From: Methanotrichaceae archaeon
GTDB taxonomy: Archaea; Halobacteriota; Methanosarcinia; Methanotrichales; Methanotrichaceae
DNA: 64,000 nucleotides
Direction: 5' to 3'
Assembly (NCBI GenBank): GCA_963803145.1
Contig: CAWDLW010000008.1
Location: 128,001 to 192,000 of the forward strand
The position numbers were made by a program, and so were the translations under genes. Each line of letters opens with the position of its first letter. Position 1 is the first letter of the stretch. Positions 16,248 to 21,768 of the stretch are shown here, one piece after another. Below the pieces are notes generated by a model. That model searched no databases. It was given only the letters and a program-made list of their open reading frames with translations, and was not told the DNA's origin.

Positions 16248-19200
16248 ATGGCGATTGATAACCTTTCTCAAAGGATCTCTGAGCTTTCACAGCGATTAGA
16301 GGAGCTCCAGGCAAGGTGCGTGAACAATCCGGAATATGCGCCCGAAGTCCTATCCGATGCCCTGGATAGCCTCCAGGCCAGCCTTGAGGAGCTATCGGCT
16401 GCGGATGAGGAGCTTATACAGCAGAATGAGGAACTCAAGCACGCTCAATCGACGCTGCAGAAGAGTGAGGAAAAGTTCCGACTGGTTGCCGATTTCACCT
16501 ATGATTGGGAAACTTGGATAGACCCTAAGGGGAACTATGTTTATGTTTCGCCTTCCTGCGAGCGAATAACCGGATATTATGCCGAAGAATTCATAGAGAA
16601 TCCCTCTCTTTCCATAGACATAATACATCCAGATGACAAGGAAGCTTTTAAACAGCATCAAAATGTCCATTTCGATGAACAGACTGATAGCGCGCAAATC
16701 GATTATCGTATTATAACAACGAAAGGAGAGATCCGTTGGATCAGTCATATCTGCCAACCGGTATTCGAAAGGAATGGGGAATGGCTTGGGCGTAGGGCAA
16801 GTAATAGGGACATCACAGAGCGAAAGCGGGCCGAGGAGGCTTTGCGCAAGAGTGAAGCGAAACTCCGCGCCGTCTTTAGATCCCTCTCAGAAGGCATCGT
16901 CTTCCTCAACACTAAAGGCGATGTGGAAGAGGTTAACGAAGCTGTACAACGCATACATGGCCATACTCTGGAGGAGTTAGCTGACCCCAAACTCGATCCA
17001 CGTTGGCAAATAATCCGACCAGATGGCACACTTTTCCCGGTTGATGAACAACCAGCGATAGTAGCGCTTCGTACTGGGCAGGCTGTGCAGGATGTTGAAA
17101 TGGGTGTCCCAATGTCTGATGGGAAGTTAAGATGGCGACTTGTGAACGCACAGCCGGTATATGATGATAGCGAAAACCTGCTTGGGGCAGTGGCGTCGTT
17201 CTTCGATATCACCGAGCGCAAGCAGGCTGAGGAGTTGCTTCGCCAATCGGAGCAGCATTTCCGACTGCTGTTCGAGACCATGCTTCAAGGGGTGGTCTAC
17301 CATGATGCGGATGGCACAATTCTCTCAATGAATCCCGCAGCCGAGAAGATACTCGGCAAGACCCGAGAGGAGTTTCTGGGCAGCTCTTCCGTAGGTCAAG
17401 AGCACTTTACCATAAAAGAGGACGGTTCTCCCTTCCCTGGTCTAGAGCATCCTGCCATGGTTTCTCTTCGCACAGGGCAGGAAGTGCATAACGTTATGAT
17501 GGGGGTTTACAATCCTCGAAGGGGCTGTTACCGCTGGATAAGCATCGATGCGGTGCCCATCCTCCGGCCTGGGGAAGATAGGCCATATCAGGTTTACACA
17601 ATCTTCGATGACATTACCGAGAGGAAGAAGGCCGAGGAGGCGTTGAGGGAAAGCGAAAAGAAATATCGGCATATTGTGGATTATGCGCCCACAGGCATCT
17701 ATGAAATTGACTACGCCGGTCCTCGATTCAAGCGCGTTAACGATGCCATGTGTCAAATCCTTGGCTATACTCAAGAGGAGTTAATGGCGACGAACCCCTT
17801 AGACCTTTTGGATGAAGAAAGCCAACAGCGATTCCAGGAACGAATTCAGAAGGTGTTAGCTGGGGAGCCTATTGATGAGTCCGTCGCATTCCGTGTATTC
17901 GGCAAGGATGGCCGAGAGATGTGGGCTGCCCTCAATGTCAAACCAATGTATACCGATGGTAAACTGGATGGCGCCTTGGTCGTTGCGCATGACATTACTG
18001 ATCGGAAACGGATGGAAGAGGCGCTACGCAAATCGAAGGATGAGCTTGAGCAACGTGTCCAGGAGAGGACATCCGAGCTATCCAATGCAAAAGAGAACCT
18101 TGAAGCGATCAACGAAGAGCTTCAGGTGGAGATCTTAGAGCACGAGAAGACAGAGAAAGAGCTTTTGAAAGCTAAAGAGGCTGCAGAGGCCGCAGTCGAG
18201 GCCAAGGCTGCGTTCCTGGCAAACATGAGTCATGAGCTCAGGACACCTCTGAATGCTGTTATAGGTTTCTCAAGCCTACTCTTGGAGGATAACCTTACAC
18301 AGGATCAGAAGGAGAGCATCGAAAGAATCAGGAACGGCGGCGAAGCTCTCCTCTCCCTAATCAGCGATATCCTTGAGTTCTCGAGGGCAGAAAAGGAGAA
18401 GATAACGCTGGAGCATCAGCCGTTAAGCCTCAAGCGTTGTATCGAGGAGTCTATGGATATGGTGGCGGTGCAGGCCAACGATAAGGGCCTGAACCTTGCT
18501 TATACTATCAGCTACGGCACACCAGATACAATCATCAGTGATCCCGGAAGGCTTAGACAAGTTCTAGTCAATTTGCTTAGTAATGCTGTTAAATTCACTG
18601 ATGAAGGAGATATATCGGTATCTGTTTCCTCAATAATTATTGAGGGCAATAAGCGCAAAATAACTTTTGCGGTCAAGGATACTGGCATTGGCATGCCTCA
18701 AGATAAGATGGATAGACTCTTTAAGCCCTTTACACAGCTTGAATACGTAATAAGCCGCAAGCGTGATGGCGCAGGACTTGGACTCGCCATAAGCAAGAGG
18801 CTTGTCGAACTCATGGGCGGAGAGATATGGGCTGAAAGCGAGGAGGGCATAGGCTCGACCTTCAGATTCACTATTCCCGTAGAGACAATCCCTGGAAAGC
18901 AACTGGACTTAGGCGAGAAGGATAGAGTTGAGTATGAGAACCTCTCTGCTCAAAAGCCCCTGAGCATTCTTGTGGCCGAAGACAATCCTTCAAACCAGAG
19001 GGTTCTCGTTGAGATGCTGAAGCGATTGGGCTACAGGGTGGATTCTGTGGCTGATGGTGTCGAGGTTCTGCAGGCCCTCCAAATCCGTCCTTACGACCTG
19101 ATATTCATGGATATCAAAATGCCAGAGATGGACGGCCTCACGGCCACCAGGGAGATACGAAAGCTATGGCCTGAAAACGGACCGAAGATTATAGCTATCA

Positions 19201-19316
19201 CAGCCTTCGCAATGGATGGCGATCGTGAGAAGTGCCTGGAAGCTGGCATGGATGACTACATCGCAAAGCCTGTGAAAGTGGATGATCTTGCGACGCTACT
19301 ACACAATTTGGCATAG
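16248..19316 (+). CDS. Hybrid sensor histidine kinase (4 PAS, HisKA, HATPase, receiver)
   Basis: DITERK PAC motifs, FLANMSHELRTP, GLGLAIS and FMDIKMPEMDG. Confidence 0.96.
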   Translation: MAIDNLSQRISELSQRLEELQARCVNNPEYAPEVLSDALDSLQASLEELSAADEELIQQNEELKHAQSTLQKSEEKFRLVADFTYDWETWIDPKGNYVYVSPSCERITGYYAEEFIENPSLSIDIIHPDDKEAFKQHQNVHFDEQTDSAQIDYRIITTKGEIRWISHICQPVFERNGEWLGRRASNRDITERKRAEEALRKSEAKLRAVFRSLSEGIVFLNTKGDVEEVNEAVQRIHGHTLEELADPKLDPRWQIIRPDGTLFPVDEQPAIVALRTGQAVQDVEMGVPMSDGKLRWRLVNAQPVYDDSENLLGAVASFFDITERKQAEELLRQSEQHFRLLFETMLQGVVYHDADGTILSMNPAAEKILGKTREEFLGSSSVGQEHFTIKEDGSPFPGLEHPAMVSLRTGQEVHNVMMGVYNPRRGCYRWISIDAVPILRPGEDRPYQVYTIFDDITERKKAEEALRESEKKYRHIVDYAPTGIYEIDYAGPRFKRVNDAMCQILGYTQEELMATNPLDLLDEESQQRFQERIQKVLAGEPIDESVAFRVFGKDGREMWAALNVKPMYTDGKLDGALVVAHDITDRKRMEEALRKSKDELEQRVQERTSELSNAKENLEAINEELQVEILEHEKTEKELLKAKEAAEAAVEAKAAFLANMSHELRTPLNAVIGFSSLLLEDNLTQDQKESIERIRNGGEALLSLISDILEFSRAEKEKITLEHQPLSLKRCIEESMDMVAVQANDKGLNLAYTISYGTPDTIISDPGRLRQVLVNLLSNAVKFTDEGDISVSVSSIIIEGNKRKITFAVKDTGIGMPQDKMDRLFKPFTQLEYVISRKRDGAGLGLAISKRLVELMGGEIWAESEEGIGSTFRFTIPVETIPGKQLDLGEKDRVEYENLSAQKPLSILVAEDNPSNQRVLVEMLKRLGYRVDSVADGVEVLQALQIRPYDLIFMDIKMPEMDGLTATREIRKLWPENGPKIIAITAFAMDGDREKCLEAGMDDYIAKPVKVDDLATLLHNLA

Positions 19317-19410
19317 AACTGTGTGATTTCAACACAAACCTCGAAATAAGTAGCTCTCTGTCCAGCCATCCACCTCTCGCCAGTCAAAGCTATGCAAAAG
19401 CCTGGCAAGG

Positions 19411-19482
19411 GTTTTTTATAGAACTTAAGCTCAACCTCTAATCATGACACAGAATTCTTCTGTGAGGGATTGCCTTCTATGA
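19411..19482 (+). promoter_or_regulatory. TATA box plus 12-codon leader uORF (MTQNSSVRDCLL*) upstream of leuA
   Basis: TTTTATAG at 19414..19421; ATG at 19444 lies at the expected TSS distance; ends CTT CTA TGA at 19474..19482. Confidence 0.6.
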
Positions 19483-19483
19483 T

Positions 19484-21007
19484 ATGAGGGCGCTTAGTGG
19501 TGCCGAAGTAAGAATCTTCGATACGACTCTTCGTGACGGCGAACAAACACCGGGCGTCTCTCTGATGCCTGATGAAAAGCTCATTATCGCGAGACAGCTT
19601 GATAAACTCGGTGTAAACATCATCGAGGCGGGTTTTCCGATATCCTCTAAAGGCGAGTTTGAAAGCGTTAAGGCAATCGCCCATGAGGGACTCTCTGCGC
19701 AGATCTGCGGCCTCTCAAGGGTCATCATCAAGGACATCGATGCCAGTCTTGATGCAGACGTCGACCTCGTGCATGTTTTCGTTTCTACCTCAGATATACA
19801 GATAGCCCATACCATCAAGAAGAGCTATGATGAGATCGTTGCAGATTCGGTGAAGGCTGTTGAGCATGTCAAAGATCACGGCAGGATCTGTCTCTTCTCT
19901 GCAATGGATGCCACAAGGACATCGCCTGAGTTTCTTAGAAGAATCTTTGGGGCTGTAGAGGAGGCTGGAGCAGACATAATCAATATTCCGGATACTGTAG
20001 GCGTATGCGTGCCTTCTGCTTTTTACCGCCTCGTCAAGGAAATCTGCGATAACACCCAAAGGATGACTGTAGATGTCCATTGTCATAACGACTTTGGCCT
20101 TGCAGTTGCCAACAGCCTTGCAGCCTTCGAGGCTGGCGCTAGGGAGATCCAGGTCTGCGTCAATGGCCTTGGCGAGAGGGCAGGGAATGCAAATCTTGCC
20201 GAGACTGTGATGAGCCTTCACTCAATCTATGGTGCAAAGACGAGCATAAAAACTGAGTATCTCGTTGAAACTGCAAGGCTTGTTGAGCGGCTCTCCGAGG
20301 TCAGGATTCCAATCACAGCTCCGATCGTAGGCGAGAATGCGTTTTCGCATGAGAGCGGCATTCACAGCCATGGGGTGATAGAGAATAGCAAAACATTTGA
20401 GCCTGGGATCATGACGCCTGAGATGGTCGGCCATAAGAGGCGCATAGTTCTCGGAAAGCATACAGGCCGCCATGCTGTCCGGCAGGTCCTTGGAGAGGCA
20501 GGCTATCACCCCACAGAAGACCAGCTTCAGGATATTCTCAACAGGATCAAGGAGCTTGGAGATAAAGGCAAGCAGATTACGGATGCAGATCTTCAGACGA
20601 TAGCAGACGTGATTATCGGAGAGGTCGCAAAGGGACGCCAGGCTGTAACCCTGAAGGAGGTCTCTGTCATGACAGGGAACATCATTACTCCTACGGCGAC
20701 AGTCAAGGCTCTTGTTCGCGGCAAGGAACGCGTCCTCGCAAATACCGGTGTAGGCCCAGTGGATGCTGCAGTAAAGGCAGTCCAGGGCCTCCTTGACAGC
20801 GATACATCTATACATCTCTGCGACTTCAGGATCGATGCAATATCAGGCGGATCTGATGCCCTGGCAGAGGTAATAATCGGCGTCGAGGATGACCGCGGCA
20901 GGAAGGTCAGCGCACGATCGGCCCGCGAGGATATCGTCATGGCGTCTGTCGAGGCGCTTGTCAGTGCCATCAATCGATTAATGCTTTTGGAGGAAGAGAA
21001 AAGTTGA
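19484..21007 (+). CDS. leuA: 2-isopropylmalate synthase (DRE-TIM plus regulatory domain)
   Basis: [30 protein letters not shown] and GVGPVDA; the paralogue cimA cannot be fully excluded. Confidence 0.8.
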
Positions 21008-21768
21008 TACGTTGGGAAATAATCGACTCCCATTGCCACCTCGATTTCAAGCAGTTCAATAAAGATAGAGAGGCTGTGATAGAGCGGGCCCGGGACTGCG
21101 GCATCGTGCTGATGATCAACTCTGGGATTGATCTTGCGAGCAACATAAGATCGCTCAAGATGGCAGAAGAGAACGAATTCATATATCCCACATTGGGGCT
21201 GAACCCCAACTCTTTGGGAAGCCTGAGCGATGATGACCTGAATGCCACGTTAAATCATATGAAGGAGAACGCCGATAAAACCCTAGGGATAGGTGAGGCA
21301 GGGCTGGACTATTACAGATGCTCAGATCAAGCGAGCCGAAGCCGTCAGGCCGATGTCTTTGGACGGGTAATTGAGGTCGCCAGGTCCCTCGACCTTCCTT
21401 TAATCATCCATTCCCGTGACGCCGAGCAGCAGGCTCTTGAGATGGTCAAGGATCTTAACAAGGTCATATTCCACTGCTACGGCGGAACCCTCGGCACAAT
21501 GAAGGAAGCTGTTGACCGCGGTTTTTACATCTCCATAGCGACTGTTATCTGTCATTCGCCTCATCATCAGATCCTGGCAAGAAATGTTCCTCTTGACAGG
21601 CTGCTGGTAGAGACCGATAGCCCATTTTTATCGCCTAGAAAGGGCAGAAATGAGCCGTCTTATGTCCTTGATTCAGTTAGGCTTATAGCGAAGATAAGGG
21701 GCATGCAGCCGTCGGAGATAGCCCGGATAACTAGCGAAAACACAAGGAAGATCTTCGATATTCGCTGA
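21004..21768 (+). CDS. tatD: TatD-family hydrolase
   Basis: DSHCHL, IGEAGLDY, IIHSR and VETDSPF. Confidence 0.95.
   Translation: MIRWEIIDSHCHLDFKQFNKDREAVIERARDCGIVLMINSGIDLASNIRSLKMAEENEFIYPTLGLNPNSLGSLSDDDLNATLNHMKENADKTLGIGEAGLDYYRCSDQASRSRQADVFGRVIEVARSLDLPLIIHSRDAEQQALEMVKDLNKVIFHCYGGTLGTMKEAVDRGFYISIATVICHSPHHQILARNVPLDRLLVETDSPFLSPRKGRNEPSYVLDSVRLIAKIRGMQPSEIARITSENTRKIFDIR

Follow-up and report, generated by a model that had tools for sequence, protein, structure and literature searches.

Upstream of leuA in a Methanotrichaceae archaeon lies a 12-codon upstream open reading frame (uORF), referred to here as the leader, and the enzyme is encoded in the +1 frame relative to it, an arrangement that points, with good confidence on the comparative evidence, to a programmed +1 frameshift at leuA. 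The stretch of DNA analysed (the window) comprises 64,000 nucleotides of this genome (contig CAWDLW010000008.1, positions 128,001 to 192,000 of the forward strand), and positions are given within it. The fuller reading, in which the ribosome slips at one pair of codons in response to a shortage of the amino acid that the second codon calls for, is held with moderate confidence; a paralogous gene of the citramalate synthase (cimA) type appears to use an isoleucine codon in the same way. The window protein scores 705 bits on the NCBIfam model NF002085 (2-isopropylmalate synthase), for which the cut-off is 517.

The leader (19444–19482, forward strand as for all features of the window given here) opens with ATG 19444, encodes MTQNSSVRDCLL and has as its last two sense codons its only leucine codons, CTT (19474–19476) and CTA (19477–19479). 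Directly after them is the 0-frame stop TGA (19480–19482), which in this genome bounds the shift window on its 3′ side; the 5′ bound is a TGA in the leuA frame (19463–19465), found immediately 5′ of GGG in many relatives as well, and the leuA frame is open from this GGG at 19466. Located at the 5′ end of the shift window is GAGGGATT (19464–19471), a Shine–Dalgarno (SD)-like internal element of the class GGRAUY with a predicted duplex to the tail of 16S ribosomal RNA (rRNA). Two nucleotides further on is the proposed shift site CTT-CTA-T (19474–19480), with CTT as the codon of the peptidyl (P) site and CTA as the sensor codon of the aminoacyl (A) site, to be read in the +1 frame as TTC and TAT. 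The enzyme frame runs from this TTC through the stop (19475–21007), and the predicted trans-frame product would join MTQNSSVRDCL to YDMRALSG.... Upstream is a promoter-like element combining a transcription factor B recognition element with a TATA box (GGCAAG...TTTTATAG, 19404–19421, read directly), in which the TATA-like TTTTATAG occupies 19414–19421 and is separated by 22 nucleotides from ATG 19444. Orthologues of family f1, to which this genus belongs, repeat the block GGCAA-RR-GTTTTATAG, and a TATA-like hexamer ends 22–25 nucleotides before the uORF ATG in 40 of 44 f1 leaders. With such spacing the transcript start would fall at or next to the ATG; other families have an SD of the GGTGAT type at the leader ATG. 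The preliminary description of this region had named the TATA box, the uORF with its two leucine codons and the +1 frame of leuA, all at coordinates that hold, and had proposed a leaderless transcript, which the promoter spacing fits.

From this anatomy, its conservation and the codon constraints set out below, we infer the following mechanism. The leuA messenger RNA would begin at or next to AUG 19444, and ribosomes would read the 12-codon leader. The enzyme frame would be entered only by a one-base forward slip with CUU (19474–19476) in the P site and CUA (19477–19479) in the A site: peptidyl-tRNA-Leu(GAG) would move from CUU to UUC, UAU would be decoded next, and LeuA would be made as a fusion to the leader. 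The GGRAUY element, which ends 2 nucleotides before this CUU, may aid the slip or the pause by pairing with the 3′ end of 16S rRNA, as happens in bacterial prfB. With charged transfer RNA (tRNA)-Leu plentiful, CUA would be read fast, the ribosome would stop at UGA 19480 and little LeuA would result; with leucine scarce, the empty A site would give time for the slip and LeuA would be switched on. In cimA the same device would have an isoleucine codon as its sensor.

The cimA-type paralogue of this genome (L002, on the minus strand of another contig, C12) is 50% identical to the window protein and matches NF002085 with 636 bits. Just upstream of its 498-residue open reading frame (ORF) is the leader MNAWDRFIR*, with the site TTT-ATC. 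The enzyme frame there has its own ATG 4 nucleotides after the leader ATG (ATGAATG); in the relatives L103 and L104 the sequence is ATGAACG, without an enzyme-frame start. In a quick tree of 68 full-length rows, leuA-type (40) and cimA-type (28) proteins are split on one branch (SH-aLRT, the Shimodaira–Hasegawa-like approximate likelihood ratio test, 98), and records of the Joint Genome Institute and some at NCBI name the second group citramalate synthase; the first 60 residues do not separate the two types, identities in that part being too close. A third, more distant paralogue, resembling homocitrate synthase, has an ordinary ATG and no leader.

To follow the leader, the 5′ regions of the leuA-type best match and of the second paralogue were sampled at three depths, with matches in 41 of 41 genomes of relatives, 190 of 201 of the class and 260 of 301 of the phylum, and in chosen genomes besides. 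Other paralogues (L003–L005) and identical duplicates were dropped, giving 253 records, 161 of leuA type and 92 of cimA type, the type being set by the search that fetched the locus and by the tree. To pass the leader test, a record needed NTT and, directly after it, a codon for Leu or Ile, both read in the frame that lags the enzyme frame by one base and placed 5–20 codons before the catalytic motif DTTLRDGEQ, with an upstream start in the same frame; the same test in the other alternative frame served as control. By this test 138 of 161 leuA-type records, from 22 of 30 families, carry a leader, as do 81 of 92 cimA-type records, from 16 of 19 families of which two are doubtful; in the control frame the counts are 7 of 161 and 1 of 92, respectively. 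By itself a 12-codon upstream ORF is unremarkable; because the whole architecture recurs in 138 of 161 records as against 7 in the control frame, the leader is, by this comparison, not a product of chance.

The distribution is wide. All 12 haloarchaeal genomes sampled (L203, L204 and ten loci outside the main counts; 12 of 12) have it ending in ...CGR-GTT-CTT, and among 80 named contigs of Methanothrix, Methanoperedens, ANME-2 and Methanosarcina, of which 79 were analysable, it is present in 72, some species overlapping with the first set. The 23 leaderless leuA-type records come from eight families and one genome of family f16, and all have an ordinary ATG 6–19 codons before the motif. The shortest leader, in L152 of family f14, has six codons (MRDRFL) and a stop directly after them.

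The two frames leave distinct traces in these leaders. Of the 138 leuA-type leaders, 137 have ATG as the first codon of the short frame, and in 72 of 138 (cimA type, 30 of 81) the open enzyme frame between its upstream stop and DTTLRDGEQ contains no ATG, GTG or TTG; ATG alone is missing in 94 of 138 and 55 of 81, respectively. Overlapping +1 ORFs without a start of their own, as at known +1 sites, are thus a feature of many of the leaders, the window having in addition an ATG particular to its genus. When 59 distinct f1 leaders are compared column by column, variability in codons 2–7 is 0.77/0.54/0.92 bits at the three codon positions, a 0-frame periodicity, and downstream of the site it is 0.93/0.68/1.39, a +1-frame periodicity. 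Between the two regions is an almost invariant core of 16 nucleotides.

In the short frame this core reads RGG-GAY-YGN-NTT-sensor. All 138 leuA-type leaders have Leu as their sensor (TTA 58, CTA 50, CTT 26, CTC 2, CTG 1, TTG 1), and 80 of 81 cimA-type leaders have Ile (ATT 65, ATC 15), figures of which only the split between Leu and Ile is free of the choice made in the leader test, which admits only codons for these two amino acids. This contrast between paralogues is the strongest argument for amino-acid sensing, and it suggests that the sensor follows the pathway of the gene. The A-site codon is a sense codon, and a stop codon in that position, as in sites of the prfB type, was not found in the leaders. 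The P-site codon of the 138 leuA-type leaders is TTT (67), CTT (64), GTT (5) or ATT (2), each before a pyrimidine. Genes for tRNA-Leu(GAG), tRNA-Leu(UAG) and tRNA-Phe(GAA) are present in the genome; in a slip from CUU to UUC, tRNA-Leu(GAG) is predicted to pair at all three positions, with one G-U pair, and tRNA-Phe would slip from UUU with perfect pairing.

The same architecture would be expected if the +1 shift were real but constitutive, giving a fixed low yield of LeuA or CimA with no sensing, the Leu and Ile codons being slow or historically fixed. The sensor codons are indeed not extremely rare (CTA 11% and TTA 10% of Leu codons, ATT 28% of Ile codons). Against this, the sensor has stayed Leu in leuA across all six Leu codons and Ile in cimA across 16 families, a merely slow codon need not match the product of the pathway, and the third paralogue, which is not an enzyme of an amino-acid pathway, has no leader. 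We regard a constitutive shift as unlikely. Leucine sensing by recoding, as put forward in the preliminary description, gains support from the comparison, which also adds an apparent isoleucine counterpart in cimA that the description had not considered; the uORF, the NTT-Leu pair and the +1 relation, whose conservation it had proposed as a check, are kept from Methanotrichaceae to haloarchaea.

Codon choice indicates on which frame selection acts. The enzyme-frame residue over the leuA sensor varies (Y/F/S/C/W/L), and where it is Phe after Phe, the preceding Phe codon is TTC in 26 of 26 leaders, so that the sensor stays CTT (Leu) and does not become TTT (Phe). Over the cimA sensor the enzyme-frame Leu is encoded by TTA in 80 of 80 leaders, a codon that makes up 10% of Leu codons in the genome; TTG over this site would make the sensor Val. 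The codon before NTT is CGT, CGC, CGA or CGG, synonymous in the short frame and V/A/D/G in the enzyme frame. These choices place the constraint in the short frame, not in the enzyme frame. Within GGRAUY, ATA does not occur as the enzyme-frame Ile codon, Gly is encoded almost exclusively by GGG or GGA, and the short-frame Arg that follows is never AGR, though AGR are the preferred Arg codons here, which argues for a constraint at the level of the RNA.

The element is complementary to rRNA. The 3′ tail of the 16S rRNA of this genome is GGAUCACCUCCU, and the duplex predicted between it and the 12 nucleotides before NTT has a median energy of −8.7 kcal/mol across 123 leaders of the leuA type versus −3.5 kcal/mol in 2983 control windows (cimA type, −7.4 versus about −3.5 kcal/mol); controls reach the leader median in 3.4% of cases for the leuA type and 9.1% for the cimA type. 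The element of the window itself is predicted at −9.1 kcal/mol. In family f9 (L143–L145), AGGTGGTC stands in place of GGGATC, with an 8-bp complement to the 16S tail (−12.4 kcal/mol) and a GTG in the enzyme frame. By prediction, the internal SD-like element of a prfB-type site is thus present, family f7 excepted. No further RNA structure was detected: the 60 nucleotides 3′ of the site show no stability beyond that of shuffled sequences (mean z +0.59, 0 of 128 below −2), the alifold consensus over 22 families is empty, neither result giving any sign of an attenuator's alternative hairpins (terminator and antiterminator), and Rfam gives no match to the leader, the only two matches in 18800–20000 lying elsewhere and far below gathering scores.

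The enzyme frame over the leaders is itself conserved. Its residues in the 138 leuA-type leaders are G (121), I (125), V/A/D, F (138, by construction of the test) and Y/F (133), which bears out the motif I[AVE]F[FY] that the preliminary description had placed upstream of uncertain LeuA starts. The uniformity of G and I would fit a frame change further upstream, for example at RGG-G, in which case G-I-[VA]-F-[YF] would be the true N terminus and NTT-Leu a by-product of F-Y or F-F. Some Methanosarcina genomes with an enzyme-frame ATG upstream of GIDFY, and cimA proteins of families f20 and f11 whose N termini, at the equivalent position, read M-[VT]-A-[LS]-F, would agree with this. The codon before RGG, however, varies (GTG, AGA, GCG, ATG, CTG and others), the absence of ATA and the restriction to GGG and GGA point to nucleotides and not to residues, and selection on the enzyme frame does not explain the invariant TTA, the TTC of the F-F class or the Y/F/S/C/W/L variation; the match of Leu and Ile to the pathways would, moreover, be a coincidence. 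An earlier shift site is very unlikely on this evidence.

Equally improbable, in our estimate, is a non-canonical start in the enzyme frame (AUU or AUC of the GI motif, or CUG), with the leader as a separate regulatory or incidental uORF. An in-frame CTG is among the options discussed for Haloferax leuA2 (PMC8305020), and AUY follows GGR in the enzyme frame of most families. No candidate codon, however, is common to all families (f7 has CGT-ACT-GTC, haloarchaea GTC/ATC-GAG), a TGA immediately 5′ of GGG often closes the enzyme frame, such a start codon would overlap the SD-like element at a spacing of 0–1 nucleotides, and the leader ATG is the one indicated by its distance from the promoter or by a genuine SD (GGTGAT).

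A last route to LeuA is particular to this genus. An in-frame ATG (19484–19486), 1 nucleotide after the leader TGA, opens an ORF of 507 residues ending at 21007, and LeuA might be made here mainly from this ATG, by termination and reinitiation or by independent initiation, with the leader vestigial. The ATG would give an ordinary LeuA N terminus and is common to the three genomes of the genus (L001, L006 and L007). It is absent from the other 41 of the 44 f1 leaders, where GTA, GCA or other codons stand in its place (GTA or GCA in the nearest relatives outside the genus), all three genomes keep the leader core complete, and no SD lies at a usable distance, GAGGG (19464–19468) being 15 nucleotides away. 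We consider it very unlikely that this is the main route. More generally, the distance from the sensor to the short-frame stop ranges from 1 to 11 codons (the stop follows directly in 15 of 138 leuA-type and 12 of 81 cimA-type leaders), so neither a stop-dependent shift nor reinitiation can be the general mechanism; a start near the uORF stop, present in the window, is absent in most relatives, in which the stop moves by up to 10 codons. The preliminary description was right in expecting the downstream ATG not to be conserved and in calling GAGGG poorly spaced for it; GAGGG is better seen as part of a longer element, GGRAUY, that complements the 16S tail. The TGA after CTA, which the description had made part of the switch, does not belong to the conserved device, because the stop position varies in this way. 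Transcriptional slippage is rejected on sequence, the T run at the site being 2 here and 2–6 elsewhere, and a pseudogene or sequencing error by conservation in well over 200 genomes.

Several observations weigh against an amino-acid-sensing shift at the NTT-sensor pair, beyond the restriction of the leader test to Leu and Ile codons. The relatives are not independent, and each type of leader may have arisen only once. L194 of family f29, of cimA type, has Leu at the sensor (TTT-CTT, MSDYFLCR*), its three nearest counterparts having TTT-ATT. Re-pairing in cimA is poor by inspection, at 2 of 3 positions for UUU-A and 1 of 3 for AUU-A in Methanosarcinaceae, and CUA and UUA, the two rarest Leu codons here, are still not very rare. 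In the cimA-type loci of Methanosarcinaceae (L120–L133, L221, L224, L230) the short frame starts directly before AGG with ATG, GTG or CTG and the site is ATT-ATT; in 4 of 16 the short frame has only a CTG start or there is one extra G. Family f7 (L180, L182, L187, L190, L192) has no rRNA-complementary element (−1.2 kcal/mol). Over the upstream element the short-frame residues (R/G/W and D/N) vary more than the enzyme-frame G and I, so that an earlier shift site translating G-I-x-F could account for the latter, and in this genus LeuA could be made without a slip, because an ATG stands one base after the leader stop. A peat metatranscriptome run (5% of sampled words, 85% likeness) yielded only contigs of relatives, with no piece at 99% or above, covering 19567 onward and not the leader.

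Some side observations concern the same loci. In L224 the extra G puts the upstream part into the enzyme frame. Family f7 leaders are long, with 20 codons. In L194, L196, L201 and L202, genes of the leuA and cimA types are arranged head to head with about 300 bp between them, and each has a leader of its own. A scan of this genome for the layout gave 297 motif matches, of which 4 passed the ORF filter: leuA, cimA and two that are likely due to chance. A look-alike of the core, TGGGATTGCTTTTAT, on the minus strand of contig C25 (about 136607), stands just before the ATG of a 203-codon ORF (MILGISGSPRK) and is probably a chance match, with no short-frame start there. Flanking leuA in the window are an upstream ORF of 1,022 residues (16248–19316) and one of 254 residues (21004–21768) that overlaps the leuA stop by 4 nucleotides; no other leucine-pathway gene adjoins leuA, neither flanking ORF having been searched against families.

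Taken beyond this locus, the leaders may form a phylum-wide class of codon-programmable switches, in which the first enzymes of the Leu and Ile branches are made only after a stall at one hungry codon and a slip; we think this somewhat probable. With similar moderate assurance, such switches would span Methanosarcinia, Methanomicrobia-like and Methanocella-like lineages and haloarchaea, in each case as a leaderless mini-ORF helped by pairing with the rRNA tail. If so, this would be the first +1 frameshift of the programmed kind in any cellular gene of archaea, and the first natural case in which a shortage of aminoacyl-tRNA is read directly as a change of frame controlling the biosynthesis of that same amino acid. 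The sensor would be minimal and re-programmable by one codon, as short as six codons in one lineage (MRDRFL), and the unassignable leuA and cimA starts in hundreds of methanogen and haloarchaeal genomes would be explained as a systematic annotation error. For amino-acid control in archaea, we know of no established equivalent of the T-boxes or the leader-peptide attenuation of bacteria.

Only one programmed frameshift, of the −1 type in fucA1, is established in cellular archaeal genes according to a 2021 review (PMC8211752). The closest precedent is haloarchaeal leuA2 (HVO_1510), whose ortholog set has major start-codon problems in 16 genomes, an open annotation issue in Pfeiffer & Dyall-Smith (2021, PMC8305020); peptides of HVO_1510 were found there upstream of the first usable Met, the junction not being among them. 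The same text mentions an out-of-frame ATG with ribosomal slippage and speculates on leucine dependence, with shortage needed. It thus concerns the same gene family and phenomenon, orthologues without a usable start and an out-of-frame ATG; its main text names no shift site, rRNA-complementary element, methanogens or cimA counterpart, and its supplement may hold more. Our literature search found no other paper on this mechanism, and that supplement may propose a site. Papers on ribosome profiling (Ribo-seq) in M. mazei and H. volcanii (PMC11456600, PMC10117724) have, in their main texts, no mention of leuA, isopropylmalate or frameshift; as Methanosarcina and Haloferax have genetics and such profiles exist, the reading is directly testable there. 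What this analysis adds is the spread through the phylum, a delimited core, an element complementary to rRNA, codon evidence specific to each frame, and the Ile counterpart in cimA.

Of the systems known elsewhere, several share parts of the proposed device. Bacterial prfB, the gene of release factor 2 (RF2), shifts by +1 with CUU in the P site and as sensor a UGA, which RF2 reads. Shared with it are a short 0-frame ORF with the main protein in +1, CUU before a pyrimidine, so that re-pairing can occur, an SD-like element a few nucleotides upstream with pairing (here predicted) to the 16S tail and, on the proposed reading, an A-site decoding rate that reports the concentration of the sensed product; different are the archaeal setting, a sense Leu or Ile codon read by charged tRNA in place of UGA, with the stop 1–11 codons on, and a spacer of 2 nucleotides after GAUY as against 3 after GGGGG. 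In the leuL leader of bacteria, as is proposed here, a short peptide whose Leu codons report charged tRNA-Leu controls the leucine pathway, by means, however, of alternative hairpins and several Leu codons, whereas here no structure is predicted and the output would be a change of frame. The yeast Ty1 site CUU-AGG-C is a +1 device of a retrotransposon, set by a rare tRNA. In it, and in frameshifting at hungry codons, P-site tRNA-Leu on CUU slips by +1 at a slowly filled A site and limitation of aminoacyl-tRNA raises the shift; these are a retrotransposon device and a laboratory artefact of starvation, not a conserved switch on the biosynthetic gene of the sensed amino acid. Hungry frameshifting is described in general terms in the 2021 review cited above (PMC8211752). 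Antizyme (OAZ1), partly described in that review, is, like the switch proposed here, a metabolite-responsive +1 shift that closes a feedback loop on its own pathway; it is eukaryotic, shifts at a stop codon, with a downstream pseudoknot in many lineages, and is induced by excess, whereas the switch proposed for leuA and cimA would be thrown by shortage.

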